From NCBI GenBank assembly GCA_963770755.1, contig CAVYQZ010000009.1, positions 209,195 through 273,194 on the forward strand: 64,000 nucleotides of DNA, read 5' to 3'. The stretch is from Candidatus Aminicenantes bacterium. Lineage in GTDB: Bacteria; Acidobacteriota; Aminicenantia; UBA2199. Shown one piece after another: positions 22,787-63,454 of this stretch (position 1 is the first letter of the stretch; each line of letters starts with the position of its first letter). The position numbers and the translations under genes are program-made. The notes beneath the pieces are model-generated. The model was not told the origin of the DNA and ran no database searches. It was given only the letters and a program-made list of their open reading frames with translations.

Positions 22787-22800
22787 GCTGATCCTCCTTT

Positions 22801-37687: not shown

Positions 37688-37717
37688 TAATTATTTGATA
37701 TTTTAAAGGATGGCCAA

Positions 37718-38086
37718 CTAGCTGGCCGGCGACTCGACAAAGCCCAGTTCCAGGCCGTTGACATCCCTGGCATGCAGCAATTTGACCCCGCTGTCCATGG
37801 TAATGGGTCCGAATAGAATTTCCACGCCATGGTTTTCCAGGTGGGCGGCGGTTTGCTTGATGTCGTTCACGTAGAAACCGAGCGATAGGCCCGAACCCGA
37901 ATAAGGCAATTCCTTGATATCCTTGATGAATTCGATCTGGTGGCCATGCTGATCGTCCATGAAGACGATGTCCACTCCCGCCCCCGGACTGAAGCGCCGG
38001 CTGACCTTGAAATCAAGGACGCGCTCATAAAAATCCACTGACTTGTGAATATCGATCGTATAGACGGTTATAAAATCAATCTTCAT
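37718..38086 (-). CDS. VOC (glyoxalase/bleomycin-resistance) family protein
   Basis: 122 aa; beta-alpha-beta-beta-beta VOC pattern. Confidence 0.6.
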   Translation of the reverse strand: MKIDFITVYTIDIHKSVDFYERVLDFKVSRRFSPGAGVDIVFMDDQHGHQIEFIKDIKELPYSGSGLSLGFYVNDIKQTAAHLENHGVEILFGPITMDSGVKLLHARDVNGLELGFVESPAS

Positions 38087-43495: not shown

Positions 43496-44641
43496 TTATA
43501 TCTTTTCTATCCGTTGCTTATAGACGACTCCCCGCTCGGCCAGCTCCTTGAGCAGGAACTCCACGCATTCGGGTTGTTCGCCGATGAATTCCGGGGCGAT
43601 GATCCCCTGGCGGCTGAACAAACCGCTGCTGACCATCCTCAAGGCGGCGGTGGCCGTGTAGCCCGTGGTGCGGGCCATGGAATGGACATTACTGGCGCTG
43701 TCAAAGCGGTCGAACAGGTCATAGACGTAGCGGACCTTTTCACCCCCCTGCTCACCCTCGACGCTGACCTGCATCACCGTGATGTCGGTCTCTCCCGGCT
43801 GCAGCTTCCACAACGGGAAAAGCAGCCTGGCGGTGAAGTCCAGGGGACGGATGCGCACGCCGTTGACCTCCAGCGGTTCCTGGCTGAAAAAGCCGGTTTC
43901 GCGCAGGACCGCGATCTTTTCGATATGGCCGGGGTAGCGCAGGGTCTTTTCCTTCATGTTGGGAATATCGAGAGTGCGGGCCAATGTGCGCAGGCCGTCG
44001 CTGTTGAAAGCGACCAGGGTGGATATCCCGGGCAGGTTCAGATATTCGGAGTCGGAAAGGGCGGGGCGCACCACCATCTTGCCGTTCTCCACGTAACGGG
44101 CCGGACGGATGTATTCCTCGATCACGTCCAGGGGCGAAAAAACCGCCTTGTATTCGTAGGGCCAAACACGCATCTCGGGCAGGCCGCCGACGTAGATCAG
44201 GACGGAATTCGTTTTATCCAGCAGGTGATGGACGTGGCCGACCAGGACATTGCTCATGCCCGGGGCCACCCCGCAATCGACAATGGCGGTCACGCCGTTA
44301 TTTTTCGCCAGCTCATCCAGTGGAAAAGGGTCCTCGGAGAAAAAGGCGATATCGATCACGTTTTTCCCCGCTTCGATCACCGCCTTCAGGGTCTGGAAAC
44401 CCAGAAAACCGGGGACAGCGTTGATCACCATGTCCTGGCCGGAGACCAGTTCCCTGACCCTGGCCACATCGGCCAGGTCGGCCTGCAACACCGTGATGCC
44501 CGGTTGCTCCTGATATTTTTTCAGTGCTTCGCGGCTGATGTCAACGACACTGACGGCAAATTCCCGGTCCTGCGCCAGGTCCATGGCCATGGGGCCGCCG
44601 ACCAGACCCGAACCCAAAACAATTACTTTCTTTTGCTTCAT
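43496..44641 (-). CDS. Saccharopine dehydrogenase family NAD(P)-binding protein
   Basis: N-terminal VIVLGSGLVG Rossmann motif and family-typical length (381 aa). Confidence 0.65.
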   Translation of the reverse strand: MKQKKVIVLGSGLVGGPMAMDLAQDREFAVSVVDISREALKKYQEQPGITVLQADLADVARVRELVSGQDMVINAVPGFLGFQTLKAVIEAGKNVIDIAFFSEDPFPLDELAKNNGVTAIVDCGVAPGMSNVLVGHVHHLLDKTNSVLIYVGGLPEMRVWPYEYKAVFSPLDVIEEYIRPARYVENGKMVVRPALSDSEYLNLPGISTLVAFNSDGLRTLARTLDIPNMKEKTLRYPGHIEKIAVLRETGFFSQEPLEVNGVRIRPLDFTARLLFPLWKLQPGETDITVMQVSVEGEQGGEKVRYVYDLFDRFDSASNVHSMARTTGYTATAALRMVSSGLFSRQGIIAPEFIGEQPECVEFLLKELAERGVVYKQRIEKI

Positions 44642-44882
44642 TTATTCTCCTTCCATAGTGCAACGATCTGAAATTCAACAAGCAGGACCGCCATCGGTTT
44701 GAAAGGCGATTACAGGCCGCTGAAACGGTTCAAAAAAGCGACCACGACGCTGTGTCGGCTGTGGGTCATCATGGATCCATTGTACCCCGGGAGGAAAAAG
44801 TTGTAAACATCCGGCCCGCGAGCTTTCTGCGTTGACGGCAATGACGAAATATAATACAATAGCCCTTTCCTTCAACCCGCGG

Positions 44883-44956
44883 GCCGAAGTAGCTCAGTTG
44901 GTAGAGCAATTGATTCGTAATCAATAGGTCGGGAGTTCAAATCTCCCCTTCGGCTT
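44883..44956 (+). tRNA. tRNA-Thr (anticodon CGU)
   Basis: Cloverleaf: acceptor GCCGAAG/CTTCGGC, D-arm GCTCAGTTGGTAGAGC, anticodon loop TTCGTAA, T-arm GGGAGTTCAAATCTCCC; CCA not encoded. Confidence 0.85.
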
Positions 44957-45027
44957 CTTCCCATCAGGGTTTACCTCAAGTGTACTTCAACTATTCAGAT
45001 GACAATCCCCTATTTCACAGGATTTCT

Positions 45028-45588
45028 TTATTCGTCAACAGTCAGGTTCCCAGCCCTGCAACCTCTCCTCGGTAAAAGACCTCGCTCCAGCAAGACATGC
45101 GCAATGGCGTCTCGATAAGCCGAATATAGTTTATCAGGTAGGTCAATATAAAGTTTGTCAAGTCCTTTTCCATCCCCCTTGAAGCCCTTTCGTATCTCTT
45201 CATCGGATAAATCTTTCAGGGCAACTCGCATCTCGGCTAAGTTTTTTTCATTGTAAGGGGACTGAATATTTTTTAGGGCATCCTCCCGAGAGAAATGAAA
45301 TATTCTGTCTTTCTGAGATAATGCAAACTCTAAAACCTTGCGGATACCTGCATCTTCATAAGAAATTTGCAACTCTCGATGAATCGCGCCAAGAAGAAAA
45401 GGAGCCACTGTGCAAATCAACCGTGTTTCTTTTGTCCAATCGTTTACGACCGTGATGAGAACATAGTTTGGTGCAGTCGAATTATTTTCAATGGCTCTCA
45501 CATAGAGTTCGTAAGCATCGGGTTCAGCAGCATTCGCATATACTGACATCAGAATCAGAATCCCAATGCTGATTCTTATTCTATTCAT
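45028..45588 (-). CDS. Hypothetical secreted protein (AT-rich island)
   Basis: Signal peptide (MNRIRISIGILILMSVYANA) preceded by a GGAGG RBS; no domain recognised. Confidence 0.5.
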   Translation of the reverse strand: MNRIRISIGILILMSVYANAAEPDAYELYVRAIENNSTAPNYVLITVVNDWTKETRLICTVAPFLLGAIHRELQISYEDAGIRKVLEFALSQKDRIFHFSREDALKNIQSPYNEKNLAEMRVALKDLSDEEIRKGFKGDGKGLDKLYIDLPDKLYSAYRDAIAHVLLERGLLPRRGCRAGNLTVDE

Positions 45589-45725
45589 TTTATTCCTCCA
45601 CCCATTCCAATTCATCAAGCAGAACAAATTCACCGCCGCAATCACACTTATAATTTTTATCTCTATTTTTTTCTTTCGCACGTTTCAAACATATCATAAC
45701 CTCTGGTCCGGAAAAAATACGACGT

Positions 45726-45992
45726 TTAAAAAACAATTTGTCCTGCATAAATCACAAAAAATGTAAGCAATCCAAACCAAAAGGCTTCCAACAATCCATA
45801 TTCTAAAAATGCCCCCCAAGTTATTGGGTCAAACCAAGCAATAGCAATTTTACTAAAACCAATTTTTATTTTAATAGCCCCAACAATAAAAATCAAGCCA
45901 GCAAAAATGAATGGCCGCCAAATTTTCTTGTAAGCATTCTTTTTACTTTGTCTAATTTTCTTTACTTCTTCTTCATTCTTGTATTTCCACAT
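45726..45992 (-). CDS. Small hypothetical membrane protein
   Basis: 88 aa with two predicted TM helices. Confidence 0.35.
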   Translation of the reverse strand: MWKYKNEEEVKKIRQSKKNAYKKIWRPFIFAGLIFIVGAIKIKIGFSKIAIAWFDPITWGAFLEYGLLEAFWFGLLTFFVIYAGQIVF

Positions 45993-46168
45993 ACTTCCCC
46001 CACTTATGGAAAATCACCAACCACAATCATTCTGAGGTTCTTGCCCTGAGATGTCAAACTTGGCTGCAATTGAAGCAGGTGATTACTGTAGCGGAAAGAG
46101 GTCGAAAAACGTCGTTTATACCATTGAAAGCATGAACTAATAAGGGTTTCCGTTGTTTAGTCTATTTG

Positions 46169-46440
46169 TTCGTAATCAATAGGTCGGGATATTGCCACTT
46201 TGATTTTTCGAGGACTAGGATTTCTGGAAAATCAACTAGTGGCAATATGGCACTCTGATTTTCAAAGGATTTTTAGATCTGGAAAATCAGCTAGTGCCAA
46301 TATACCATCACTGGATGCGTTTCCAGCTTTCCGAACTTGGAAACGCATAGTGATGGTAACACTAGATGCGTTTCTGATTTACCGGCTGTGAAACGCATAG
46401 TGTTGCTATTCAAATCTCCCCTTCGGCTTCTCTTTCCCAC
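46169..46440 (+). repeat. Direct repeat of the 3' portion of tRNA-Thr (46169-46189 and 46409-46440), interrupted by four bulged hairpin elements (46190-46408) of the 21784/23526 family
   Basis: ttcgtaatcaataggtcggga and ttcaaatctccccttcggcttc match the tRNA at 44883-44956. Between them lie four ~50-nt palindromes of the same bulged-hairpin family; the two most distal carry CACTNGATG…CATAGTG-type arms. Confidence 0.8.
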
Positions 46441-46897
46441 CTTGCTTTTCCATTATCCATCAATGTTTTCGATGTTTTTCATATCTGTGACCATGAGTGA
46501 CTGGAACTACCCGAAACACCCCAAAATTGAGAATAACATAACACAATTTTGACACAGTGAAATTTCGGATTTAACGATTAGAAAGTGAAGCTCATGAAAA
46601 AGTCTTTTAAATCAGGCTAAGCAGATCGTCCTTGTTGAGAGCGGGCTATTCGCCGATGGTGACCGTTTTCTGGCAAGCGTCGCTGCCGTTGCTGTTAAAT
46701 AATACAAAATCCCCCATTATTAATTTGTCCCTGTACGACCGCTGTATACATGCAATAAATCTTAATTAAATCAACACTCATTTCCAGTTCCAAACAAATA
46801 ATGTCACATAATTCTCTATTTTAATTTACTCATTTTATTGATAAAGATAGCAAAACCGAACAGCTTTTCAGAAAAGCATACGGTCAAGGGAGAGAAC

Positions 46898-47251
46898 ATG
46901 GCTGATAACGTGCAATTTAGTTTAAGCGGCAAGGCCGAGAAATACCAAGGAGAAATCACCGGGAGCGGGAGCTTAAAATTAGAAACTGATGCCGCTTCAT
47001 TTTGCTTCAAAATGGATTACAAATCCAAGGACAAAGTGATCCTCACCCTTTCCGGAACACAGGGAATAACTTTATCAGCCAGCAGCAAGCTGAAATTTTC
47101 GGAAAGCATTGCCAAGAATCTGATCAACAACACATGGGAGGGGAAATACACCATTAAGCTTGAGATAAACAAGACAATTGCAGCCCAGCTCAACCAGGAA
47201 TTTTTAAAAGCCGGTCCGAAAACCAGCGCCGAGATCATTATAAAATTTTAA
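46898..47251 (+). CDS. Hypothetical protein
   Basis: ATG at 46898 with an AAGGGAGAG RBS; AT-rich island. Confidence 0.4.
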   Translation: MADNVQFSLSGKAEKYQGEITGSGSLKLETDAASFCFKMDYKSKDKVILTLSGTQGITLSASSKLKFSESIAKNLINNTWEGKYTIKLEINKTIAAQLNQEFLKAGPKTSAEIIIKF

Positions 47252-47284
47252 AATGAAGATTTCGATTACACGTAAGGGGGAATC

Positions 47285-48065
47285 ATGTCAGTAAAAATAC
47301 ATAACAAAATGCCGTTAATGCTTGCGCTAATTTTCCTGATTACCTGGCCGGGAAGTATTTTATGCTTCTCTTCCGGGCAAAGTGAATATGTCCCGGATAA
47401 AGAATTGACGGCAAAACTGAATGAATTCAGGTTCCTGCGCGAAAACGACCATTTCATTGAACGCCCTGCAGAAGGGATATGACGCGGTCCACAACGAAAA
47501 CATTTTCGCCAACGCCAATTATGGCGCGCAGGAATCGCTGATCTTCGAGGTGGCGATCTTCCATCTGGAATATATCGACAAAATCAGAAATGCTGACCAA
47601 GCCAGGCGTTGCGCCGAAAAAGCGGCCGCCTTATGGAATAAATATATTAATTGGTTTTCCCAACTATCGGAAGAGCAGCGCTCATCCATGCATGGATCCC
47701 ATATCCGCATCTACATGGCGGTTGTCCATCTGGGCAATTCACTACTTCGCCAAGGTGATCTTTCTCAGTTATTTGACTGCTATGCAAACATGGCCGCCGA
47801 CAACCTGCATTATTTTGGCACAACTGCAATGTCGGTATGGAAGAAAGGTCTCTACGGCTGTCCGGATGGAAATTTATCAAGACCTCATACGGAAACCAAT
47901 AGAAGAAACAGCATTAAGCATGGCTGTGATGAACATTGGAATAATTATGCGGCAACCCTCGGGGATTGGCTCCTGATCGCGCCGCTGCAAAACAGCGCCA
48001 AAATCGCCTATGGGCGAGAAATCGAACAAATTGCAAGAGAAATTAAAAATCTCGGCGGTGAATGA
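47285..48065 (+). CDS. Hypothetical protein with an N-terminal lipoprotein-like signal; two overlapping frames (47285..47482 and 47421..48065) suggest a frameshift
   Basis: A signal-peptide ORF and a 214-aa ORF overlap out of frame. Confidence 0.35.
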
Positions 48066-48089
48066 TGAAATCTTTGCTTGCGGCATTGA

Positions 48090-48749
48090 GTGTCTGTCTT
48101 TTTATTCCATTTCATGGCTCACGCGCAGAATCCGGCGGACAGCGCGGCCCAAGGCGAAGCCCTGAAGTATTTGTACGTGCAACCCGAAATCAAGGTAAAT
48201 GTTCAGCAGACGGACCGGGTAATCACCAGTCCGTTGTGCATTTCGGCGCACATCACCAACCTGACCGACTCCAACATGTCGCTGGTCGGGGCGCAGGTCG
48301 ATTTTCCGGAAATGGACATCGGCAGGGAGACGGGCAATCCCGTCGACCTTGTTTTCAGCAACACTGAAGACCTGGATTCGGGCAGCGCTATCATCGGCAA
48401 GGCCCGCTTCGCTGCCGCGAAATCTCACTGGTATTTCCCATTTTCAAATCCGAGACTGCTTTTTTTCAAGCCCGCCGAATACGAGGCCAGGGTCATCATC
48501 ACCTACAAGGTGTTTGACCGCAACCAAACCATGATCGAGGAAAAAGTGAAGGTCACGTTGGAGCCGCCGCTCAGTTCGATATTGTGGGGCAGCATTCTGG
48601 GCTCACTGCTTCTGGCCCTTTACATCGCCCTGTATAAGCGCAGTAAGGAAAACCTGCCCTGGAAAACAACGTTGTCCCGTTTCGCTGCGGTTTCCCTGAC
48701 CGGGATCGTCAGCGCCAGAGAGCCTCCAGGGGTCAGGTCTCAATTGTAA
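48090..48749 (+). CDS. Hypothetical protein with a C-terminal TM anchor
   Basis: 219-aa ORF. The alternative upstream frame (48062..) encodes a signal peptide, so a frameshift is possible. Confidence 0.4.
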   Translation: MSVFLFHFMAHAQNPADSAAQGEALKYLYVQPEIKVNVQQTDRVITSPLCISAHITNLTDSNMSLVGAQVDFPEMDIGRETGNPVDLVFSNTEDLDSGSAIIGKARFAAAKSHWYFPFSNPRLLFFKPAEYEARVIITYKVFDRNQTMIEEKVKVTLEPPLSSILWGSILGSLLLALYIALYKRSKENLPWKTTLSRFAAVSLTGIVSAREPPGVRSQL

Positions 48750-48802
48750 AGTTATCACGATTGGTTTATGCCTCAGGCATCAGCCAGCGGACAGGCAAGG
48801 CC

Positions 48803-49912
48803 TCAAGGAATTCTATTGATTTGCGCAATGCACGTCAGTTTCGTCTGACGGTCATAATATATTAGTTGATCTCCCTGTGGACTCCAACCCTGAACCTCTT
48901 CAATGCTGTTATCCGAGTTGGTCAACTGTGCATAGTTTCCATTTCTGTTGATTAAATAAATATCGGACTTGGTGAGTTTATAAGTATGTTCATCAACCTC
49001 ACCATATGATACGGCTAACAGATTTCCATTTGGGGCCAAGTAACTAGTCTTTATATAAAAAAATTCATTTTTTCTTCCTATGGGAAGGTTAGGGAATTTA
49101 TTAATTATTTTAAATACAACCATTCCGTCTTTGTCGATAAACACGTAATTTTTATCTTTTTGAATAGCTACCAACAAATCTTTGTTGCTTTTCAGCGGAA
49201 ATAATTTGACATTATATGTTTTCTCGAAATAGAGTTGAGTAGCGGTTTTAGCGGCGACGTTTATTTTCAGTAACGTTTTTCCTTTAAATATCAGAGAATT
49301 ACTTGGAATAAAATATCCCGCGAGAATTGCAGCGGTATCAGTAACCGAATAAACGTCTTCAGAGATTTTTGTATTAATTTTGTAAGCAAATATCTTCGAT
49401 TCCTTGTAATAATAAAATGTATCCCCTTCTGAATTGAAACACAGTAAAGACTTTATTCCTTTCCTGCCAAGATTTATTTCAAATAATAATTTTTCTGCGC
49501 CGACGATATCGCAAAGAAGAACTTTTTTATCTTTATCAACTATTACAACTTTTTTGGAATCCGGAGCCCACCACTTTGAATAACCTTCAAATTCCCGTAT
49601 CTTTTCCCCTTTTTTATTGAAAATAAATGTTTTCAATACCATATCCTTTTTTTCAGGAAGCATTTTAATAAAATCATCTCTATTCATACAAAAATAACTC
49701 GCAAGGATTTCATCTTCGTTCGAGGCACTGAAATACTCCCCATCTGGCGACCATGCCTTGAACATGTATCCATCAGGAATAGCAATCTCTTTTATGCCGG
49801 GAATCCTGATTTTTGCCGGATCATCCCCGACATCCAGATATTGCGCAAACAGATTACCTACGGCCGTCCCCAGAAATAATATTACCAGAACCGTAATTAT
49901 TGTTTTCTTCAT
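48803..49912 (-). CDS. Secreted beta-propeller (PD40/TolB-like repeat) protein, paralog 1
   Basis: Signal peptide (MKKTIITVLVILFLGTAVGNLFAQ); WSPDG / WSPQGD / LAPNGNLLA propeller-blade motifs. Confidence 0.6.
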   Translation of the reverse strand: MKKTIITVLVILFLGTAVGNLFAQYLDVGDDPAKIRIPGIKEIAIPDGYMFKAWSPDGEYFSASNEDEILASYFCMNRDDFIKMLPEKKDMVLKTFIFNKKGEKIREFEGYSKWWAPDSKKVVIVDKDKKVLLCDIVGAEKLLFEINLGRKGIKSLLCFNSEGDTFYYYKESKIFAYKINTKISEDVYSVTDTAAILAGYFIPSNSLIFKGKTLLKINVAAKTATQLYFEKTYNVKLFPLKSNKDLLVAIQKDKNYVFIDKDGMVVFKIINKFPNLPIGRKNEFFYIKTSYLAPNGNLLAVSYGEVDEHTYKLTKSDIYLINRNGNYAQLTNSDNSIEEVQGWSPQGDQLIYYDRQTKLTCIAQINRIP

Positions 49913-49959
49913 CGCCAATCCTTTAATTTGTTTTGCGCAGGTAAACAATTAAATCACCA

Positions 49960-51006
49960 TTAAGCAAGCGATCGCCTTGAGGGCTCCATTTTGTGGGAAG
50001 AAGTGGGATAAGGTATAGCAAAACGAACGTATTTTCCTTGAAAATTAAATAAATAAACTTCATCCGTTGAATTGCCAGTTTGGTCTCCAGATTCTGCCAT
50101 TCTTAAGAAAATTAGTTTTCCATTGGGAGCCAAAGCCCAATCAGATTTGTCTTCACCTGGAATTAAATCGGCGCAATCACCATTAGGTTTTGGTCCACCA
50201 CGATCAATAAATGCTCGGAAATTTCCTAGCACTGTTCCATTGTCTTCATACAAATATACCGTGTCCCAACCATTGCTTACCGCAAAAACCTGACGACCAT
50301 CATGTAAACATAAATATTTTGGTACTCCAATACCAGACGGAGTTATCGCAACAAATTGTCCAGTTAAAAAATTGTATCTTATTAGCTTAAAACTATCTTC
50401 CAATATCCATAAAAGTGTCTTTTCTTTGTTTAAATAACGATGAGCTCCGTGTTCAAAGGAAACTATCGCTTTTACATCTATTGTTCCCAATTCCTGTCTT
50501 ATACCTGTCTTCGGAGTTAAAGAAACAAACCTATATCTGGATTTTCGTGCCACAACTATAATCTGCTTTAAAAGAATATCACCTTGAGGAGATACGTCAA
50601 TAAATTGTTCTTTTTGAGGATCGACCGAAAGTATTATCTCTTGCTTGGCTTGAAGGTCATAGATTGCATAGAAGTGTTTTTTACCTTCCCAGAAATAGTA
50701 AAAGATCCGTTTGTTGTCGGGGAATATTGTGGTTTGATCAAAATTAAATTTCCTGGGAAGCTTTTGCAAGAAATTCCCGTCCTTGTCCATGATAAGCCAG
50801 CCTTCTTTGCTGCCACCAAGATACCATTCCCCGTCATGAGACCAGGCATATCCCCCAACCGGTTTGCCGTTATAAATAATATTTTTTGTTGATGCGATTT
50901 CAATTTTCGCCGGATCATCACCAACATCCAGGTATTGCGCCAGAAGATTGTCTGCAGCTGCCCCCAGAAACAATGCTACCAGAACCGTAATTATTGTTTT
51001 CTTCAT
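49960..51006 (-). CDS. Secreted beta-propeller protein, paralog 2
   Basis: N-terminal ~50 aa almost identical to the neighbours (AQYLDVGDDPAKIEIASTKNIIYNGKPVGGYAWSHDGEW). Confidence 0.6.
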   Translation of the reverse strand: MKKTIITVLVALFLGAAADNLLAQYLDVGDDPAKIEIASTKNIIYNGKPVGGYAWSHDGEWYLGGSKEGWLIMDKDGNFLQKLPRKFNFDQTTIFPDNKRIFYYFWEGKKHFYAIYDLQAKQEIILSVDPQKEQFIDVSPQGDILLKQIIVVARKSRYRFVSLTPKTGIRQELGTIDVKAIVSFEHGAHRYLNKEKTLLWILEDSFKLIRYNFLTGQFVAITPSGIGVPKYLCLHDGRQVFAVSNGWDTVYLYEDNGTVLGNFRAFIDRGGPKPNGDCADLIPGEDKSDWALAPNGKLIFLRMAESGDQTGNSTDEVYLFNFQGKYVRFAIPYPTSSHKMEPSRRSLA

Positions 51007-51152
51007 CGCCAATCCTTCAATTTTTTTTCCGTAGGTATACAATCAAGTCGCCATTGAGCATGCGGTCACCTTTGGGACTCCATTCTACGGAAGAAGGATA
51101 AGGTAAAGGAAAACGAACACTTTTGCCCTTAAAATTAAATAAGTACACCTCA

Positions 51153-52093
51153 TCAGCTCTGATTATCACCCTCACCGCTGCGTCTCATCATGCAAAACAA
51201 AATCAATTTGCCATTTGGAGCCAATGCTCGAAAAGCACGACTATCTCCAGGGATCAAATCTGGATTTATGCCATATACATCGGGTTCTCCTCGATCGAAA
51301 AGTGCGCTGAATTTCCCAAGCAAAGCTCCACCAGCTTCAAATAAATAGACCATATCATCAAATGTAGTAACTATAACCTGGCGACCATCCCGCAATTTTG
51401 AATAGGATGGTTCACCAATTTCAAAAGGAGTGATATTAAAGACTCATTTTTATAGAAATCATATTTTTTAATTTTAAATCCGCTATCTGATATTATCAAT
51501 AGGAAATTCCTTTTATCTAAATAGCGATTATCACCATATTGATAACTAAGGTTTACTTCAATTATTCCCAGATCTTGCCGCGAACCATTCTCGGGGTTAT
51601 AAGAAATAAATGAATATTTACTCTTTCGTGCCACCACAATAATCTGCATAAATAAAATATCCCCTTGTGGCGACACATCTATAAAACGTTCATTTTGCGG
51701 GTCAATTGTTAAAACTGTTTCCTGTTTGGTCTGCAGGTTGTATATTGCATAATAGTCCTTCTTGCTATTGATATCTTCAAACTCATAAAAAATTCTTTTA
51801 CTGTCAGAAAATATTGTGACTTGATAATAATTGAACTTCCTAGGCAGCTTCTGCAGGAAATTCCCGTTCTTGTCCATGATATACCCGCCATCATTGTTTG
51901 CTCCCAGAAACCACTCCCCATCATGAGACCAGGCATATCCCCCAACCGGTTTGCCATTATAAATAATATTTTTTGTTGATGCGATTTCAATTTTTGCCGG
52001 ATCATCCCCCACATCCAGGTATTGCGCAAACAGATTGCCTACGGCCGTCCCCAGAAATAATATTACCAGAATCGTAATTATTGTTTTCTTCAT
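51153..52093 (-). pseudogene. Secreted beta-propeller protein, paralog 3, disrupted by a frameshift/truncation
   Basis: N-terminal 252-aa ORF and a C-terminal 80-aa ORF are in different frames. Confidence 0.55.
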
Positions 52094-52103
52094 CGCCAAT
52101 CCT

Positions 52104-53175
52104 TTAATTTGTTTTTCGCAGGTATACAATCAAGTCGCCATTGAGCATGCGGTCACCCTGGGGGCTCCATTTTGGGGAAGAAGTGGGATAAGGTATAGCA
52201 AAACGAACGTATTTTCCTTGAAAATTAAACAAATAAACTTCATCTGATGAATTGCCAGTTTGGTCTCCAGATTCTGCCATTCTTAAGAAAATTAGTTTTC
52301 CATTGGGAGCCAAAGCTCGATCAGAATTGCTGTAACCCGGGATTAAATCTGCGCAATTGCCATTTTCTTCTGTTCCACCACGGTCAAAAAATGCCCAAAA
52401 TTTCCCTAACAATACACCACCTGCTTCGTACAAATAGACTGTATCCCAAAATGTTGCCACTACAACATGACGGCCGTCATGCAGTTGCGAATAAGTTGGC
52501 GAACTGGTGCGGTGAGAAGTTATATTGGCAAGTTTTTTTTCGATGAAATCATATTTTTTTAATTTATATCCATTATCAGATACTCTCAACAATAGATTTT
52601 CTTTATTCAAAAAACGATTATTGCCGTATTCATAACTAAGGTCTGCATCAATTATTCCTAAATCTTGTTGCGAACTATTCTCCGGATTTAAAGGAAAAAA
52701 ATGAATAAGTTATCTTTCTTGCGACAACAATAATTTGCATTAATAAAATATCCCCCTGCGGTGAGACATCGATAAAATGTTCTTTTGGGGGATCTATTGA
52801 CAAAATTGTTTCCTGTTTTGTTTCCCGGTTGTAAATTGCATAATAATCTTTCTTATTTTCCCAGAAACCATAAAAGATTCGTTTATTGTCAGAGAATAAT
52901 GTGACTTGACCATAATTGAATTTCCTTGGCAGCTTCTGCAGGAAATTTCCATTCTTATCCATAATATACCCGCCATCGTTGTTGGCGCCTAAAAACCATT
53001 CTCCATCATGAGACCAGGCATAGCCCCCAACCGGTTTTCCATTATAAATAATGTTTTTTGTTGATGCGATTTCAATTTTTGCCGGATCATCCCCAACATC
53101 AAAGTATTGAGCCAGGAGACCCGTCAAGGCCAGAAATAAAATAAAAACACTGAATGACAACCATTTCATTTTCAT
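52104..53175 (-). pseudogene. Secreted beta-propeller protein, paralog 4, split into N- and C-terminal halves
   Basis: ORFs 52675..53175 (signal plus N-terminal half) and 52104..52610 (C-terminal half) are homologous to the two halves of paralog 2. Confidence 0.55.
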
Positions 53176-53526
53176 CAGTTTACTCTATTTACATCCGATT
53201 TGGTATCCCTCATTTGCGAGCAGTCTCCTTACCTTCTCCGCACAAAAAATCGAAAATCGGTGTCAGGTCTTACATTATTACTTTTGCCTCTCTTTCCCAT
53301 GCTTTTTGCCGTCATTTTGATAGGCCGTTGCGGAGAAGTCTCTGCGCACAGACCTAGCGGTGAAACATCATTTCAGAACAAATGTCATAATGAAACGGGC
53401 TGTTGCCCAAACGGGCAAAATTATTTTCCCCTTCTGGCGGTTCCAGAGATAACAAGCGAATCTATTATAGAGACTTGCCCCGAAGTCTATCCCCGGGCAA
53501 CGGCAATGGCGGCCGCCATACGGGAT

Positions 53527-54696
53527 CTAGCTGCGGCTGAACAGGCGCTTAAAAAACCCAAGGACGCCGCGCCCGGATTGCCGCCGGGAAGCGCCGCCAA
53601 GGTCGTCCAGGGCCCTGAGAATCGCTTCGATATCCACTTTCCGTGCTACCATTTTGATGATGGAGGCAATCTTTTTGTTTTCCTCGGGTTCAGTCTTGAA
53701 CAGGCCGCGGGAAAGCTTCAGCGCCGAACCTTCCAGGCTGCTCTCGGTGAAGTAGAGCGGGATCCCCGCCGCGCTGCAGGCGGCCTGGCGCCGCGGGTCG
53801 GGATTTCCACCGCACACGACGATGATGGGAGGGCAGGGTCCTCCCGAGAGCCGTGATACGATCACGGCATCGATCAGTTCGGGCCGGGTATGGCTCACCA
53901 GCAGGGCTTTACCTGCCCCCGCTTCCACATTCCGGAGCACCTCTTCCGAAGAATCGAAGGCGGTGATGAATCCGGACCCCGCACCGGCGGGGGCGGCGGC
54001 GGAATGCAAGAGCGGCGCCGCGCCGATTTCGCGGGCGATCGTGGCGATCGATGGACGGGCGATCCGTTCTTCGAAGGGGAGGATGCCGAAAACGGGGATG
54101 CCCCTGGCGCCGAACCACATGCGCAACACTGCGGTCACCGTTTCCATTTTCGCCGGCAGAACCCGGTTGATCACGACGCCCAGGAGAGGAACGCCATGGG
54201 TTTTGAACGTATCATGACAAAGGCAGAAGCTGTCGATGGTGCTTCCCACCCCTCCATCCAGGACCAGGATGACCGGGATCCCGAGCACGGACGCCACCCG
54301 GGCGTTCCCCAGGTCAAACACCGAACCCACGCCCGGATGCCCGGTCCCCTCCACCAGGACCAGACCGTTGTTTTTCTGGAACTCCTTGAATGTCCGTCTC
54401 ACGGCGTCCTTCATCCCGTGCGGTTCACCGGTTCGCACGTACCTCTCGGCCGCGCCCCGGGATGCCAGCAGGGGGGTAGATTCCCTGAATGGGATGGAAA
54501 GTCCGAGGGCCCTGGAAATGAACCAGGCATCCTGCCCGACCGATTCACCATTGACCACCGTGATCTTCTGGCCCAACGGCTTGAAAAATGACACGCCGCC
54601 TGCGATCCGGGCATTGAAAGCGCCGGCCAACCCCAGGCAGAGGGTCGTCTTGCCGGCGTCCTTGCCCGAACCGGCTACATAGATTCCCTGGGTCAT
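53527..54696 (-). CDS. BioD-like / phosphotransacetylase N-terminal-domain family protein with DRTGG domain
   Basis: Walker-like GSGKDAGKTT; overall similarity to the N-terminal half of Pta. Confidence 0.6.
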   Translation of the reverse strand: MTQGIYVAGSGKDAGKTTLCLGLAGAFNARIAGGVSFFKPLGQKITVVNGESVGQDAWFISRALGLSIPFRESTPLLASRGAAERYVRTGEPHGMKDAVRRTFKEFQKNNGLVLVEGTGHPGVGSVFDLGNARVASVLGIPVILVLDGGVGSTIDSFCLCHDTFKTHGVPLLGVVINRVLPAKMETVTAVLRMWFGARGIPVFGILPFEERIARPSIATIAREIGAAPLLHSAAAPAGAGSGFITAFDSSEEVLRNVEAGAGKALLVSHTRPELIDAVIVSRLSGGPCPPIIVVCGGNPDPRRQAACSAAGIPLYFTESSLEGSALKLSRGLFKTEPEENKKIASIIKMVARKVDIEAILRALDDLGGASRRQSGRGVLGFFKRLFSRS

Positions 54697-54818
54697 GCCT
54701 CACCCGGGAAGGGGGAAACATATTTGAACAGGTTCGCCATTTCCAAGCGCTTGACCATCAGGCACCTCCAGACGGATCCGATTTCACAAATAAGTTTAAA
54801 CTAAAGCAACCAACGAAG

Positions 54819-55184
54819 CTATTTCAGACTTTCGCTGAACTCGGCCCAATGTTTTTTGGTGATGCCCAGGAACAGGACCGAATCCAGTCGCGAGACGATT
54901 TGGCCCTTGGCAAAGACGATGACCGTGGGCACGGCCCGGATCGTGTATTGGTGCCAGAGCGGATTCTGCGGATCAGTGAGCGTCACATGCAGGAAATCAA
55001 AATCCTTGGCCCGCGAGCCGGCAAATTCGCTGAAACGCGGCAGGAACATCCGGCAATAGGGGCAGGTGGTCATTTCAAAGAGAACCACCGTTTTCTTTTC
55101 AGAGCTTATGTAAGGAGAAATATCGAGAGGGTCGGAATATGTCGAGATCAGGTTGCTCTCGCTTTTCTCGTTGTTTGGATTCAC
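54819..55184 (-). CDS. Thioredoxin-fold protein (CPYC active site)
   Basis: …KKTVVLFEMTTCPYCRMF… GTG start with an AGGAG RBS immediately after the upstream gene's stop. The longer ATG ORF would overlap the CGGC gene by ~100 nt. Confidence 0.6.
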   Translation of the reverse strand: MNPNNEKSESNLISTYSDPLDISPYISSEKKTVVLFEMTTCPYCRMFLPRFSEFAGSRAKDFDFLHVTLTDPQNPLWHQYTIRAVPTVIVFAKGQIVSRLDSVLFLGITKKHWAEFSESLK

Positions 55185-55197
55185 ATTGGCTCCTGAC

Positions 55198-55641
55198 TTA
55201 ATTGTAATTTTCCATGACCTTTCGGTCCTCGGCCAGCAGCCCGGCGGCGAGCTCATCCATTTTGACCTGCTTCCAGAACGGTAGTTTTTCATGGATTTCG
55301 AGATATTTCAGGGGAATGGGATGGGTGCCGATTACGACCGGCAGTTGATACGCGGTTTCGATGAATTCCTTGAACTTGCGGATGCTGGGGCAAGGAGGAT
55401 ACCCGACCACCAGCCCGGTGGCCAGGTGGATGACCTGGGCGCCGTTCTTTATCATTTCCGCCGGCACATACTCCATGTTGCCGCCCGGGCAGCCGCCGCA
55501 GTTGGCAAAGCCGACGACTTCGACGGCTTCGTCCCCGGCATAGGCTGCAAACGCCCCGGCCCGCTCACGCAATGCCCGGAAACACTTGCCGCCGCCGCAC
55601 GACAGATAGCGGCCGCAAATGATGATGCCGATCTTCTTCAT
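55198..55641 (-). CDS. CGGC-domain protein
   Basis: MKKIGIIICG…CGGC…CPGG motifs. Confidence 0.6.
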   Translation of the reverse strand: MKKIGIIICGRYLSCGGGKCFRALRERAGAFAAYAGDEAVEVVGFANCGGCPGGNMEYVPAEMIKNGAQVIHLATGLVVGYPPCPSIRKFKEFIETAYQLPVVIGTHPIPLKYLEIHEKLPFWKQVKMDELAAGLLAEDRKVMENYN

Positions 55642-55768
55642 GAGTCCTCCACTGCCAGCCAACAATGTCTGGGCTCAGCCCGGAATAATGGCCAGTTGGA
55701 AAATATATTCCTGATCGGCTTCCTTGTCAACCACCACAAAAGGGGAAAACACAAATCGGGGCAGGCCT

Positions 55769-57311
55769 TTAAAAAGAAATCCCCATGCGGTAGAAAAACC
55801 GCAATTCATTGTTCCTGACGCTGACGTCGTGAAAACGGCCGCGGCGCTCGATGTTTTCCAGGTTCAACGAGAGGAAAAACGGCGTACGCGGGATGGCGGC
55901 CGCCAGGCTGGCTTTGCAGGCCAGGCGCGAGTCCCGCAGCCGGGAATCATCGGTCACCTGCTCCTGGAAACGGTCGCTGCCCTGGATGGAGCTGAACCAC
56001 TGGTACCTGACACCGGCCTCGGCGCGCAGCGCGCCGAAGCGCAGGTCCAGCCCGGCGTTCAGGCTGTAGCCCAGGGAATAATAGTAGCCCCAGTTGTTCA
56101 GCGTCGTTTTCACCCCCCAGATCTCATGGCCGGCGGAATATTCGTTGAGTGCCAGGGAGTTGATCATGCTGAAATCGAAACTGGCATCGAGATCGATGCG
56201 GGCGCTGAGCTTGCCGGCGTAGCCCGTCCAGTTAAAGGCCGGGCCGATGAGGTGCAGCGACGAAAACTTGTCGGCGAAAGCGGGTCGGCCGCTCGCGTTC
56301 GAGCCAGGCCTCGGCTTTGCCCAGCCACTTGCCGTCATAGGCCACCACGGCTTTTTTCTGGAAAAAATCCCAGGCCGTGGCCCAGCCCAGCCAGTACTCG
56401 GCGCCATGCAGCGCCCCGCTTTCATCGGCCCGGACATTTTTCCACCACCAGCCGCCCATGACGGTGCGCGTGTGCGCGTATACTTCCTCGTACATGCGTT
56501 CATTGAAGCTGAAATGGACCTGGTATTCGCTCTGCAGCGGCTGCCGCGCGTAGCCCGAGCCGGAGCCGGGCCGGCCGTAGCCGGGCAGAGTGACCTGGCG
56601 CAGGTCTACGTCCAGCGAGAAATGACTGCCGGCGTCGTCAGCCGGTGATATCGGCCCTTGCTTGCCGCCAAGGCTGAGACGAAAATCGCTCCAGTCGCTG
56701 GTCGGGATGCGCGGGCCCCGGCCTTTCCCGTCCAGGAGATCATTGATCCCCAATGTCGGATTGACCAGGAAGGTGGCGATGCGGTTGGCGAAGCCCGGAC
56801 GGCTGCGGAAGTGGTTGGCGATCTGGAACAGGGGTTCGCAGAATGAGAGGCCGCCGATGGCCGTGAAGATGTGGTCGTTGATCGACGAGATCTCGCGCCA
56901 CTCGGCAATATATTCCCAGATGATCGACCCGCCCGTTGAAAACAGCAGCGAAACGAACGGGCTGAGGCCGTTGGTGCGCGCACAGCTGTAATAAAACGCC
57001 CCGGCCCAGGAATGGATCACGTTGGTCACGAGCCGGTTCGAATCCATGCGCAAACCTTCGGAACTGAAAAATTTTTGTGATTGGTCTTTCCAGGTCAAGG
57101 TGAACTGCCAATCCTCAAGGAAATCCTGGTAGTTCATCCAGTAATAAACGGCGGTCACGACCAGGTTGAGCCCCATCTCGATGTAGGCCCTCGCCTTTCT
57201 CACGGGCAGTTTCATTCCATCCTGATCCGGCACGACGGCCTGATTTTCAGCGGCCCACAGCCCGGAAAACAAAGCCAGCAGCAGACAGAAAATGACCATA
57301 CTATTTTTCAA
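55769..57311 (-). pseudogene. Outer-membrane beta-barrel protein, frameshifted near 56232-56500
   Basis: Signal peptide (MKNSMVIFCLLLALFSGLWA). The C-terminal piece is in another frame and ends in the OMP-type aromatic residue (…RMGISF). Confidence 0.5.
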
Positions 57312-57470
57312 AAGGGATCCTTATAATAAAAGGTTTCTTAAGGTCAGAAAAATATCATAAACCCAGGCGGCTGTCAATTGCCCCCGGGCGCATGCAACCG
57401 GCGCCCGCGCCTTGACGCTGAATCTCGCGGCCAATTGCCAATCAACACCAGGTATGGGTATATTTTATGG

Positions 57471-58304
57471 ATGAAGGTCAGAGCCATCCAATTCAGTCCG
57501 GCCTTGGGCAATATCGGCAAAAACATGGACACCCACATCCGCCATATTTCCCAGGCCATCCGCGACGGCAGGGAGCTGATCGTATTTCCCGAACTGAGCC
57601 TCAGCGGCTATCATCTGAAGGACATCATCAGCGAAGCGGCTTTTAGAAAGGACGGAGCCGAATGGCGCGAAATCGAAAAACTGAGCAAAAAAATCGCCAT
57701 CATTGTCGGCGCCCCGCTGGAGGAAGAAGCGGGCATCATCTGCAACGCGGCCCTGTATTTCTGGCGCGGCCAATGCCGCCATGTCCATCGCAAGGTCCAA
57801 TTGCCCAATTACGGCATGTTCGAGGAAAAGATGATCTTCAAAGCCGGAGACACGTTCCGGACGTTCCAGATCGGCACCATGACCGCCGGCATTCTCATTT
57901 GCCGGGAAATCCTCTTCCCCATGCTGGCCTACCTGTATTTCATTCAAAAAACCGACCTGCTGATCGGTATTTCCAACAGTCCGCAACGGGGCATCGGCAA
58001 GGACGGGATCTCTTCCTTCCAGCTCTGGGAAACCATGGGCTACGTTTTTTCACAGTTCTATCACCAGAACTATTTGTTCGTCAACCGCGTGGGTTTTGAA
58101 GACGGTATCGGTTTCGGCGGCGGTTCTTTTTTCGCCCGCGCCGGCCAGGGCATCTGCCAGAAGGCCGCAACCGTCGATGAGGACGTACTCGACGCCGAAA
58201 TCCAGCTGGCCGACGTGCGCCGGGCCCGCCTGAGTTCCAACTATTTGCGCGACGATCAACCGGAGCTGGTGCTCAAGGAAATGCGGAGGATCCTCCATGC
58301 TTAA
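57471..58304 (+). CDS. Carbon-nitrogen hydrolase family protein (glutaminase domain of glutamine-dependent NAD+ synthetase, encoded separately)
   Basis: Nitrilase-superfamily E-K-C pattern (…VFPELSLSGY…ILICREI…). Confidence 0.7.
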   Translation: MKVRAIQFSPALGNIGKNMDTHIRHISQAIRDGRELIVFPELSLSGYHLKDIISEAAFRKDGAEWREIEKLSKKIAIIVGAPLEEEAGIICNAALYFWRGQCRHVHRKVQLPNYGMFEEKMIFKAGDTFRTFQIGTMTAGILICREILFPMLAYLYFIQKTDLLIGISNSPQRGIGKDGISSFQLWETMGYVFSQFYHQNYLFVNRVGFEDGIGFGGGSFFARAGQGICQKAATVDEDVLDAEIQLADVRRARLSSNYLRDDQPELVLKEMRRILHA

Positions 58305-59113
58305 AATACGCTGCGACCTGGTGGAAAAGATCCTGCGTCAATTCCATCCGCGACAGCATTTTAAAAAACGGCTATAAAAACGGCATCATCGGGGTTTCCG
58401 GGGGCCTGGATTCAGCCGTGGTTTTGGCCCTGAGCAGAAAGGCCCTGGGCGCCCGCCATGTTTCCGCCCTGCTTCTCCCCTACCGCGTTTCCGCCTCCGA
58501 AAGCCTGGAACACGGCAAAATGGTCTGCGCCAAGTTCAAGGTGCCCTATGAAATCATCGATATTTCTCCGTCCGTGGATGCTTACTTCGACCGTTTTCCC
58601 ACTGATAACCGGCTGCAGGTCGGCAACAAATGCGCCCGGGAACGGATGTCCGTGCTGTACGATTTTTCAGTGCGCAAAAAGGCGCTGGTTATCGGCACGG
58701 CGAACAAAAGCGAACTTCTGGTCGGCTACTCAACCCAGTTCGGTGATGCGGCCGCCGCTTTCCAGCCCATCGGCGATTTATACAAGACCCAGGTCTTCGA
58801 ATTGGCCCGCCACCTGGATATCCCCGAGGCCATCATTGCCAAAAAGCCTTCAGCCGACCTGTGGCCCGGACAGAGCGATGAAACCGAGATCGGCATAGCC
58901 TATAATGACCTCGACGTCATCCTGCACCTGATGGTCGACAAGCGCTGGGATGAAGGCGAGATCATCGAACGCGGCTACCCGCTGGCGCTCATCCGCCGCA
59001 TCAAGAAAATGATCGTCCAGTCCCAATTCAAGCGCACCATGCCGCCGGTAACCAAGCTGCATGCCCGGACCGTCGGCATTGACTTCCGCTATTTAAGAGA
59101 CTGGAACAAGTAA
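58297..59113 (+). CDS. nadE: NAD+ synthetase NadE (synthetase domain) with a single-base frameshift near 58343
   Basis: Removing one C from caattcCatccgc restores …ILRQFIRDSILKNGYKNGIIGVSGGLDSAVVLAL (the PP-loop SGGxDS); the remainder is intact. Confidence 0.7.
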
Positions 59114-59126
59114 TAAATGGCGTTCA

Positions 59127-59266
59127 GAAAAAAGTCAAGGGAAAACAAAGGGAAGAACAAGGGAAAGGCAGAGGGAAGAAAAAGTACTAAGATATCAACC
59201 AAAGCTTTTTTTCTTTCAACTCACTCTTCCCTCTCGCTTCCCTCAATCTTCCCTATCTCTTCCCTG
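59127..59266. repeat. Second copy of the GGGAAG/CTTCCC low-complexity inverted repeat
   Basis: Purine arm caagggaaaacaaagggaagaacaagggaaaggcagagggaag, spacer, pyrimidine arm tcttccctctcgcttccctcaatcttccctatctcttccct. Confidence 0.8.
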
Positions 59267-59274
59267 CTGAACTA

Positions 59275-60094
59275 ATGGCTCTATATATCGTTCCCACGCC
59301 GATCGGCAACCTTGGAGACATGACGCAGAGGGCCATCGCCATTCTGAACCAGGTCGATTTCGTCATCGCCGAGGACAGCCGTTATACGCTGAAGCTGCTG
59401 AACCACCTGGGGATCACTAAAAAGATCGTCAGCCACTACCGTCCCAAGGAGGAGATCCAGGCGGAGAAGATTGTGACCATGTTCAGACCGGGACGCTGCC
59501 CTGGTTACCGATTCGGGGACCCCCGGGATTTCGGACCCGGGGTTCATCCTCATCCGCCGGGCCATCGCCGCCGGCATCACGATCATCCCCCTGCCCGGGC
59601 CGACCGCCTTGATTCCCGCCCTGGTCGCTTCAGGCATCGACCCGCAACCCTTTGTTTTTCTCGGCTTTCCACCCCGTCGCCAGAATGACATGCGGCGTTT
59701 TTTCAAGTCATTGGCGCTCCTGCCCTATACCCTGGTATTTTATGAATCGCCGCGGCGAATTGAAAACTTCCTGAAAAACGCTGCCGAAACACTAAATGAC
59801 CGCCATTTCGCCCTGGCCAAGGAATTAAGCAAAAAACATGAAAAAATAATCCGCGGCCGCCTGGATCAATGGTCCGAGCTGCTGAAAGACGAAACCATTT
59901 TAGGCGAAATGGTCATCATCATCTCCGCCAATCCCCACCCGCAGACCCACGAGCCGGCACCCGGCCTGAAAAGCATCGAAGATGTTTACGCCTATTTCCT
60001 GGAGCGCCACGGCCTGCGTAAAAACGAACTGAAAAGAATCATCATGAAAAAGAAAAATAAAAAAACAACCGATGGGCCAATCCATGCCCGCTGA
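59275..60094 (+). pseudogene. rsmI: 16S rRNA (cytidine1402-2'-O)-methyltransferase RsmI, frameshifted near 59490
   Basis: MALYIVPTPIGNLGDMTQRAI…; continues in the +1 frame as …DAALVTDSGTPGISDPGF…. Confidence 0.65.
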
Positions 60095-61210: not shown

Positions 61211-61304
61211 CCATTTTTTATAAAAAAATCAGTAGAATGGCATAAAACTCGCTACCCCTTTCGGAAGAGTGCTTTTTCGGTTATGAGACCGTAGGAGGAA
61301 ATAA

Positions 61305-62917: not shown

Positions 62918-63144
62918 TCCACTGGATCAGAGCGGCGGGATCAAGCAGCCAACCGAAGGGCCTTGGTCGGGAAAACCTCAAACGCCCTTTGTTAGGCCTT
63001 GCTCCGGATGGGATTTGTTTCAGTCCCGGCCGTCGCCGGACGGGACGGTAAGCCCTTATCCTGCTGATGCTCCGCCATGATACCAAGAGATGCGATTTTT
63101 TGATAGAGGTTGCGGCGGCGATCAATCATTCCATCATTGCAGGA

Positions 63145-63372: not shown

Positions 63373-63454
63373 ATAACTCCTTGCAAAAATAATAAAGGTT
63401 AGAAGATAAAGGAGGTGCGGATGCACCAGGATGGCTTGATCAGCAGGGTTCCCA

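Follow-up and report, generated by a model that had tools for sequence, protein, structure and literature searches.

Exported beta-propeller genes in an AT-rich island at tRNA-Thr of a Candidatus Aminicenantes genome and their coupling in other genomes to Amidase_3-headed giant proteins

A tandem array of four propeller genes

We analyzed a 64,000-nucleotide (nt) stretch of contig CAVYQZ010000009.1 (assembly GCA_963770755.1) from a Candidatus Aminicenantes bacterium, hereafter the window, within which all coordinates are given. It contains an AT-rich island at a tRNA-Thr gene and, inside the island, a head-to-tail array of four genes for exported proteins that are predicted to be beta-propellers. 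Genes D (52104..53175), C (51017..52093), B (49923..51006) and A (48803..49912) follow one another in this order on the minus strand, with a period of approximately 1081-1094 base pairs (bp). Each junction consists of a stop codon, a conserved 10-nt spacer (AGGATTGGCG) and the ATG of the next gene. A search for the back-translated motif AQY[LF]DVGDDP finds it four times in the window, exclusively in the array, with zero occurrences expected by chance. Four head-to-tail paralogs had been described in an earlier reading of this DNA made from its letters alone (the sequence-only reading), and strand, period and motif count confirm them.

The N-terminus of about 50 residues that had been ascribed to all four copies holds for B, C and D, whose first ~70 residues are nearly identical, but not for A, which shares only ~35. 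Beyond the N-terminus, A is ~25-29% identical in amino acid sequence to the other three. Gene A is intact (369 residues from the ATG at 49912), encodes protein P0019 and belongs to a subfamily of the P0019/P0020/P0021 type. The annotated product of B is P0001 (348 residues). Gene D, the first in the array, has its own signal-peptide variant, common to P0008. A scan for sigma-70-type promoters found nothing convincing upstream of D, and the internal "promoters" are situated within conserved coding sequence. All four units are complete genes, each with a start of its own, and a repeat search found no inverted repeats flanking the units.

Borders and origin of the island

The integration target and left border of the island is a tRNA-Thr(CGT) gene (44882..44957, plus strand; Rfam tRNA score 76.6 bits), the sole tRNA in the window according to both ARAGORN and Rfam. 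An Rfam scan of 42-56 kb returned nothing but this tRNA; microRNA-like matches on the hairpin insert described below were far below threshold. The AT-rich tract starts at 44958, the base immediately following the tRNA. The GC content is 0.569 at 1-44881, 0.402 at 44958-53280 and 0.556 at 53303-64000, and the sharp fall reported from the tRNA to ~53.2 kb is indeed seen, from ~0.57 to 0.31-0.45 between ~45.0 and 53.4 kb. For the four-gene array the value is 0.373, and 500-nt windows range from 0.31 to 0.44 over ~48.75-53.25 kb. An exact 23-nt repeat of the tRNA 3' end (TTCAAATCTCCCCTTCGGCTTCT) lies inside the tract at 46409-46431. A degenerate third copy, comprising the tRNA 3' end and TCCCA, is located at 53281..53302 on the plus strand (16 of 19 positions match over 53281-53299), where the GC content climbs back (53.25-53.5 kb). 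This copy is likely the old attR and right border, which places the better right edge of the tract at ~53281-53302, i.e. an island of ~44958-53300.

The tract is composite, with segment 1 at 44958-46431 and segment 2 from 46432 to ~53300. Its composition is also non-uniform, with GC values of 0.39 (44958-46431), 0.40 (46432-47500) and 0.51 (47501-48750). The single AT-rich island of the sequence-only reading therefore stands with respect to its AT-richness and its position at the tRNA, but not with respect to uniformity: 47.5-48.75 kb is GC-normal, a 23-nt repeat lies internally and the right edge falls at ~53281-53302. Two successive insertions at one tRNA may have produced this arrangement, segment 1 being nearest to the tRNA and the array-bearing segment 2 being older.

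A degenerate, att-like second copy of tRNA-Thr (46149..46431, plus strand) was detected by repeat search and alignment. Its first part, 46149-46189, is 78% identical to tRNA-Thr positions 13-53, and a 219-nt insert (46190-46408) splits it in the T-arm, setting its two halves apart. The insert is made up of tandem ~50-55-nt units in two pairs, with one strong hairpin per unit, giving four hairpins and a DNA fold z-score of -9.07; this hairpin motif occurs nowhere else in the window. The insert could represent att arm-type sites or a small mobile insert.

The left flank gene (43496-44641), which is saccharopine-dehydrogenase-like, is 74-85% identical at the amino acid level to genes of metagenome-assembled Candidatus Aminicenantes genomes. 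It is kept together with tRNA-Thr(CGT) in ten related loci (L001-L008, L010 and L032), none of which contains any of the open reading frames (ORFs) of the island. The tract is thus probably not ancestral. These loci come from other species (at the 74-85% identity given above) and differ in downstream content too, so they do not provide a clean empty site. In L003, for example, other genes of normal GC content lie beyond the tRNA, and the thioredoxin-like gene found at 54819-55292 in the window is 3.2 kb away from it, compared with 9.9 kb in the window. The GC shift, the direct repeats of the tRNA 3' end and the absence of island genes from the ten related loci support a horizontally acquired island at the tRNA gene, as had been proposed.

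We found no integrase, recombinase or other mobility gene in the island: no ORF in 44958-53400 matches Pfam, NCBIfam or PHROGs, and the island ORFs have no PADLOC match either. Adjacency to a tRNA 3' end, direct repeats within the tract and at its far edge and deviant GC content are all features of tRNA-linked genomic islands, and absence from relatives, seen here in other species, may be another, whereas the lack of an integrase, the degenerate right repeat and the pseudo-tRNA split by a 219-nt four-hairpin insert are not. By itself, an AT-rich islet linked to a tRNA is nothing unusual in a metagenome-assembled genome.

Export, fold and family of the propellers

The N-termini, MKKTIITVLVILFLGTAVGNLFA followed by QYLDVGDDP, are classical Sec signal peptides that end in GNLFA ahead of QY, a signal-peptidase-I type of cleavage site. 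None of the four proteins contains a lipobox ([LVI][ASTVI][GAS]C), and A-D lack any cysteine in residues 1-35 counted from the ATG. They are therefore exported but are not lipoproteins, as the sequence-only reading had called them. Because A-D also show no C-terminal sorting signal or anchor, surface exposure is unsupported.

AlphaFold2 models were obtained for the B orthologue P0002 (predicted local distance difference test, pLDDT, 84.1; predicted template modeling score, pTM, 0.82) and for A (P0019; pLDDT 83.4, pTM 0.83). The two models are all-beta and contain 27-31 strands. In the PDB, the structures that match them best over the full length are seven-bladed, namely the oligogalacturonate lyase 3pe7, WDR5, RACK1 and the designed propeller 7big; TolB matched more weakly. 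TolB has six blades, compared with the seven predicted here. The proteins are thus predicted to be seven-bladed PD40-like beta-propellers of ~350 residues, the blade number being taken from the PDB matches. Signal peptides and models together bear out the earlier description of the array as encoding secreted beta-propellers. The only residues invariant across subfamilies are the blade motifs WSxDGE, LAPNG and WSPQGD, suggesting a binding scaffold rather than an enzyme. These motifs and the seven-bladed matches resemble TolB/PD40/WD40 propellers; unlike TolB/PD40, the proteins have no Pfam family match and no TolB N-terminal domain, and they carry a family-specific [YF][LV]D[VL]G[DSN][DN]P motif. 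At E<=0.1, a Pfam scan detected no PD40, and its only result was a sub-threshold match of A to the THOC3 propeller.

Among 5.8 billion proteins, 24 match B at E<=0.001, including A-type proteins (P0019-P0021) and a third type (P0022-P0024); at least three subfamilies are represented among these 24. An exhaustive profile search of 1.84 billion representatives yielded approximately 20 full-length clusters at 50% identity, and the remaining matches, numbering in the thousands, are blade-level only and belong to large PD40-like repeat proteins. In every full-length member, [YF][LV]D[VL]G[DSN][DN]P..[IL] comes right after the signal peptide. Named members come from Aminicenantes, plus one from a bin labelled Thermodesulfovibrionales. 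The family is therefore small, unannotated and centered on Aminicenantes. A fifth paralog, P0022 (404 residues as called; third subfamily; the same 5' module, LFLGTAVGNLFAQYLDVG), is encoded on the same 275,553-bp contig outside the window. Some distant members reside in contigs of ~30% GC, and in Aminicenantes hosts of 50-62% GC the propeller genes again have 33-36% GC. Their neighbors elsewhere include IS66 or Y1 transposase fragments and ParE/RHH, PemK plus resolvase, and ORF6N genes.

A scan of metagenomes with the family alignment found one new locus, a duplicate of L084; the patterns were too generic. Partial ORFs at contig ends beside homologues were considered as extra tandem copies, but they proved to be ORF6N-like and transposase-like fragments. 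A phage origin is likewise without support: the 5' motif is unmatched in viral contigs, there are no PHROGs matches and the viral fold matches are generic propellers.

Amidase_3-headed giant proteins encoded next to propellers in other genomes

In at least seven contexts, a gene encoding a signal peptide and an Amidase_3 head begins 10-25 nt downstream of the propeller gene. These contexts are L083, L084 (equivalent to L085, L086 and L091), L089 (twice), L082, L093, L095 and the contig of P0004. The Amidase_3 domain scored 37-51 bits in Pfam searches (cut-off 27) in L084/L091, L089, L082, L093 and L095, and it was found by tblastn in L083 and in the contig of P0004. Amidase_3 is a MurNAc-L-Ala amidase. 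DPGHG, SxHxN and an ELGF-like E were recognized in the heads by eye, and we take them to be the putative Zn-ligand/catalytic positions of Amidase_3. Counted from the amidase start, the ORF runs uninterrupted for at least 3,329 residues in L084 and at least 1,961 in L082; it comprises 1,834 residues in L083 (with one frame change at the head), at least 675 in L093 and 601 in L095, and the amidase genes of L089 are remnants of 206 and 128 residues. Segments of the MG2, CARDB or Reg_prop type are also present in the giant proteins. In public gene calls the giant ORF starts late, in L084 at 2850 instead of 2106 (744 nt), and a spurious ORF on the opposite strand covers the amidase head; late calls affect L084:2106-12092 (also L091), L082:11137-17019 and L083:1662-7459. 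As a consequence of such mis-started calls, the Amidase_3 N-terminus of the giant proteins is hidden in protein databases.

The type of propeller co-varies with the type of head. B-type propellers pair with heads of the type QQxNQSxECL...ILxDPGHGC, and A-, P0026-, P0031- and P0047-type propellers pair with another type, KFPDN..I.IDPGHG. Two propeller-amidase cassettes lie in tandem in L095. A spacer of 10-11 nt and an ATG follow B-type genes everywhere, and in the window the ATG that elsewhere starts the amidase gene is the start of the next propeller gene. No homologue of Amidase_3 was found in the window, so that the toxin-immunity type of gene adjacency is seen only in the other loci. Orphan propellers also occur in L081, L087, L088 and L094, and L087 keeps an ATGCAG remnant of an amidase start.

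The 5' leader/signal-peptide module is conserved at the nucleotide level across subfamilies and genomes, in front of bodies that are less than 30% identical. Loci L081 and L089, which derive from different samples, share one propeller site whose flanks on either side are 98.6-99% identical. At this site L089 (and, independently, L090) holds a body of the third type, P0024, whereas L081 holds the B-type P0006, which is 93.7% identical to another copy located 5.6 kb away in L089. On the 5' side, the bodies change over within the shared 5' module (L081:10061-10098). Different bodies behind the same 5' end, with flanks 99% identical, indicate cassette replacement. Locus L089 itself contains three divergent, co-oriented paralogs within 6.7 kb. 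The stretches compared were L081:7762-11264 and L089:6177-9427, which have an IS66-adjacent 5' end in common.

A non-coding leader of ~150 nt upstream of the start codon (ending in TTGGAAATAATTATATTAAAAAATAATGGAGGGGAAG-ATG) is 71-82% conserved among subfamilies and genomes (L082, L083, L084 and L089); it is absent from the window. A further ~300-nt repeat plus leader, with 71-91% identity, was observed at L082:4273-4470, 6647-7040 and 9515-9920 and at L089:4242-4557. Leader and repeat precede different propeller subfamilies and, in L082, CarboxypepD_reg-like genes by Y1 transposase genes, an arrangement that resembles a shared cassette leader.

Old paralogs, purifying selection and gene conversion

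Codon alignments of B, C and D after frame repair gave a synonymous divergence (dS) of 1.07-1.50 and a ratio of nonsynonymous to synonymous divergence (dN/dS) of 0.16-0.20. No segment of B, C or D has a dN/dS above 1. Because dS is saturated, the duplication is not recent. Genes B, C and D are old paralogs of one subfamily under purifying selection, and A represents another subfamily. Recent duplication, part of the sequence-only reading, is thus rejected, and its selection-driven diversification is not supported.

Superimposed on this divergence are tracts of high identity. In windows that begin at codons 31-51, identity is 87-97% for all three B/C/D pairs. Between B and D it reaches 95-98% over codons ~291-340, compared with 48-75% in the middle of the gene, and C and D are 70-90% identical through codon ~200, after which identity drops. 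Over 72 nt around the signal-peptide cleavage site, A is 96% identical to C and only 85-89% identical to its own orthologues in L082 and L088; in the gene body, A and C are 45% identical in nucleotides (29% in amino acids), whereas A is 91-93% identical to these orthologues. This reversal is direct evidence that the 5' module has been converted within this genome. Local gene conversion, which had been suggested beforehand, homogenizes the 5' module and one 3' tract (B-D).

These results also bear on the suggestion that the four genes encode surface adhesins or receptors, recent duplicates in decay whose diversification is driven by phages or predators. The secreted, binding-type fold without conserved catalytic residues beyond the blade motifs would suit such a role, as would the accessory island location and the frameshifts in three copies, and the mid-gene blades are the most variable part of the genes (nonsynonymous divergence per site, pN, up to 0.37). 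Against it stand the saturated dS and the dN/dS values, which stay below 1 in every segment, the lack of a lipobox, sorting signal or anchor, and the absence of the 5' motif from viral contigs, where fold matches are generic. The frameshifts, moreover, may be assembly errors (see below), and the conserved neighbor is an amidase-headed exoprotein, not a surface apparatus. We regard an adhesin or receptor role as improbable; nothing supports the proposed phage- or predator-facing function, and the genomic context points to the Amidase_3-headed giant exoproteins instead.

Frameshifts: consensus errors or decay

Two copies split by frameshifts had been reported. The frameshifts exist, but they affect three copies. 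Gene B has an extra base at 49986-49997, which replaces its last 22 codons; its orthologue P0002 from another sample (87% identity) has an intact C-terminus. Gene C has two 1-nt frameshifts, a loss at 51432-51442 and a gain at 51149-51158. Gene D has an extra A at 52684-52692, and dropping it restores SFFSFNPEN, the family consensus. After frame repair, B, C and D contain no further stops. All frame changes in the array and in the neighboring three-gene block are 1-nt events at short runs, those in the array at runs of 2-4 bases. We also weighed programmed frameshifting and rejected it: in the correct frame none of the sites is slippery, and the homologues carry no shift.

Similar lesions, likewise of 1 nt at short runs, are present in host genes of the window that have a normal GC content. 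In nadE the frame changes 17 codons from the start, near 58348; the reading frame of an rsmI-type methylase breaks near 59.45 kb; and an Omp85-like gene at 60.4-61.3 kb spans three frames, with at least two shifts. A 508-residue gene at 38.8-40.3 kb aligns in two frames (shift near 39.85 kb) and corresponds to a single ORF of 474-518 residues in four relatives. Since essential genes carry the same 1-nt frameshifts, the array indels are at least as likely to be consensus errors as signs of decay, and differential decay of the copies, as originally proposed, is not established. "Pseudogene" calls anywhere in this contig, which seems prone to indels, are unsafe, a practical warning that extends beyond the array.

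We therefore consider it more likely that the frameshifts in B, C and D are consensus indel errors. Genuine frameshifts would make B, C and D young pseudogenes in an island that is eroding after the loss of its mobility and partner genes, and several observations fit this less probable but serious account. There are four 1-nt indels in 3.3 kb of array and two more in the adjacent block, where the 3' truncation of the last gene is genuine erosion; no integrase is present and the right-hand repeat is degenerate; and the B orthologue is intact in another sample. Frameshifts are also somewhat denser in the array (~1.2 per kb) than at 57-61.7 kb (~0.9 per kb), and long uninterrupted ORFs fill 9-33 kb of the window, so that some array lesions could be real. 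On the other hand, the four host genes are frameshifted alike at a similar local density, every array indel falls at a short homopolymer, and B, C and D have neither secondary stops nor larger lesions.

The same assembly raises the question of whether the array is a collapsed or chimeric repeat instead of four real genes. Unit ends do share stretches of 90-98% identity, which can confuse assemblers. However, the units differ throughout (whole-gene dS above 1; mid-gene identity 50-70%), each unit has closest relatives of its own in other samples (P0008 for D, P0002 for B, P0020/P0021 for A), and the junctions are regular and in register. An artefact of this kind is extremely improbable.

A possible role for the propellers

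We propose that the propeller is exported to the periplasm and cleaved after NLFA and that it may bind the amidase head of its cognate giant protein, most likely holding it in check in an immunity- or inhibitor-like fashion. The four copies in the window would then be orphans put together by recombination at their shared 5' and 3' ends. The parts of this explanation differ in strength. Its descriptive and evolutionary statements are very probable. That the propeller could be a specific binding partner of the amidase head, judged from gene order and sequence, is an evenly balanced proposition, and so is the explanation as a whole; an inhibitor- or immunity-like role is tentative and on the unlikely side. 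An extended version would see propellers and Amidase_3-headed giants as an unrecognized mobile two-gene conflict module of Aminicenantes and some low-GC bacteria, in which the propeller neutralizes the head, bodies are swapped behind a shared 5' module and the array in the window is an orphan immunity set. We consider this version unlikely.

An alternative that we consider doubtful is that the propeller acts as an accessory factor in the escort, assembly or secretion of the giant amidase-headed exoprotein, for instance by chaperoning it across the periplasm or by placing its amidase head so that the sacculus is opened, and that the array in the window is functionless, decaying debris. Accessory propellers and modifiers of amidases are well known: BamB is part of the beta-barrel assembly machinery (BAM) complex, LytB enhances LytC, and EnvC and NlpD activate AmiA/B/C. 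The tight operon coupling, with the propeller first and a spacer of 10-25 nt, and the co-variation of propeller subfamily and head type agree with an escort, and the frameshifts in B, C and D together with the truncated neighboring gene agree with debris. Yet intact-looking orphans are common (A, L081, L087, L088 and L094), which would be surprising if the propeller were a dedicated accessory factor; after repair, B, C and D are free of further stops and bear a signature of purifying selection; and host genes are frameshifted similarly. The intact-looking orphans, the mobile contexts rich in toxin-antitoxin genes, the co-variation of subfamilies and heads and the propeller-like nature of Tsi1 lead us to favor an inhibitor over an escort.

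Tse1, which the type VI secretion system delivers, is an amidase of the NlpC/P60 type. Its immunity protein Tsi1, which protects against this peptidoglycan amidase, is a partial beta-propeller similar to the propeller of DPP IV (PMC3391265). As in Tse1/Tsi1, an exported, all-beta, propeller-like protein is encoded beside a peptidoglycan amidase (PMC3391265). Unlike the partial, three-sheet Tsi1, the propeller described here is predicted to be complete and is encoded upstream, and the amidase is of the Amidase_3 type, Sec-exported and the N-terminus of a giant protein.

Several points weigh against the proposed explanation. Zhang et al. reported that full beta-propellers were not found among the immunity proteins of polymorphic toxins (PMC3482391). 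The putative functional link is drawn from gene adjacency and co-variation; the propeller gene precedes, and does not follow, the amidase gene; and the amidase domain is N-terminal in a Sec-exported giant, whereas classical polymorphic toxins have a C-terminal toxin domain. The operon structure is just as compatible with an escort or assembly role. The comparison of L081 and L089 is between metagenome assemblies, with the L081 arrangement present in one contig only, and the island has neither an integrase nor a clean empty site in the same species.

The array can also be compared with known multigene arrangements. Multigene families are known in which genes for exported proteins combine a conserved 5' expression/signal-peptide module with variable bodies, e.g. 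those of the Mycoplasma vsp/vlp type. The propellers resemble them in their conserved 5' leader/signal peptide, bodies less than 30% identical and the body swapped between strains, but differ in having no invertible elements, no site-specific recombinase and no simple-sequence repeats and in not being lipoproteins; exchange here looks like homologous recombination or gene conversion. Phase or antigenic variation was not indicated: the frameshift sites are runs of 2-4 bases, and there are no inverted repeats and no silent partial cassettes. The orphan immunity arrays of Bacteroidales, known as the AID and rAID-1 clusters, likewise consist of co-directional, low-GC, diverged paralogs in acquired DNA, with repetitive junctions and no cognate toxin gene. 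A rAID-1 array is defined by a XerD-like tyrosine recombinase at the 5' end, after which come two or more co-directional low-GC genes separated by repetitive sequences (bioRxiv 10.1101/471110). Co-directional low-GC genes and a repeated 10-nt junction are present in the window, and the defining XerD-like recombinase is absent; the array further differs in comprising a single protein family without homology to known immunity families and in its Aminicenantes host.

Three features have not been described before: the coupling of a propeller gene to giant exoproteins with an N-terminal peptidoglycan-amidase domain, a 5' module common at the nucleotide level to bodies less than 30% identical, and the replacement of gene bodies at one site between near-identical strains. 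The interest lies in this family and its cassette logic, which the window displays only in orphan form. Control of the amidase head by the propeller, if it exists, would amount to a new type of effector-partner system directed at the envelope, in a phylum about which little is known, and an immunity function would be a new use of the propeller fold.

Other genes of the island

The part of segment 1 that precedes the 23-nt repeat (44958..46408; GC 0.39) contains two ORFs on the minus strand without family matches. One encodes a signal-peptide protein (45028-45588) and has a GGAGG ribosome-binding site; the other encodes a small membrane protein (45726-45992).

On the plus strand of segment 2, a three-gene block with a PKD-fragment remnant (46625-46696) spans 46625..48717 and is 78% identical in nucleotides to L081:7930-5728 (tblastn and blastn). 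Its genes correspond to L081 homologues of 133, 260 and 287 residues, two of which have a signal peptide and the last of which has C-terminal membrane helices. Gene 1 (46838-47251; 133-residue homologue) encodes a product without a signal peptide, at odds with the earlier statement that the island encodes only secreted or membrane proteins. Gene 2 (47285/47421-48065; 260-residue homologue) has a 1-nt frameshift near 47461. Gene 3 (48062/48090-48749; 287-residue homologue) changes frame near a T5 run at ~48098 and is 3'-truncated, its homology stopping at 48717, ~70 codons short of the L081 homologue. In L081 the same block, bracketed by a 157-bp PKD-fragment repeat, lies 2.4 kb from a propeller gene and beside the same PKD-fragment repeat. 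Block and propeller gene thus travel together in two Aminicenantes genomes, although their orientation differs; in the window, block and array are convergent.

Other AT-rich patches in the window

Small AT-rich patches were also observed at 7300-8900, 22100-23250 and 37632-38012. They include a Fic/DOC gene (7912-8838; local GC 0.37), a PIN-domain gene (22801-23244) and an ORF at 37632-38012 with a GC content of 0.28 at third codon positions. These patches are probably further acquired islets of the toxin-antitoxin type.

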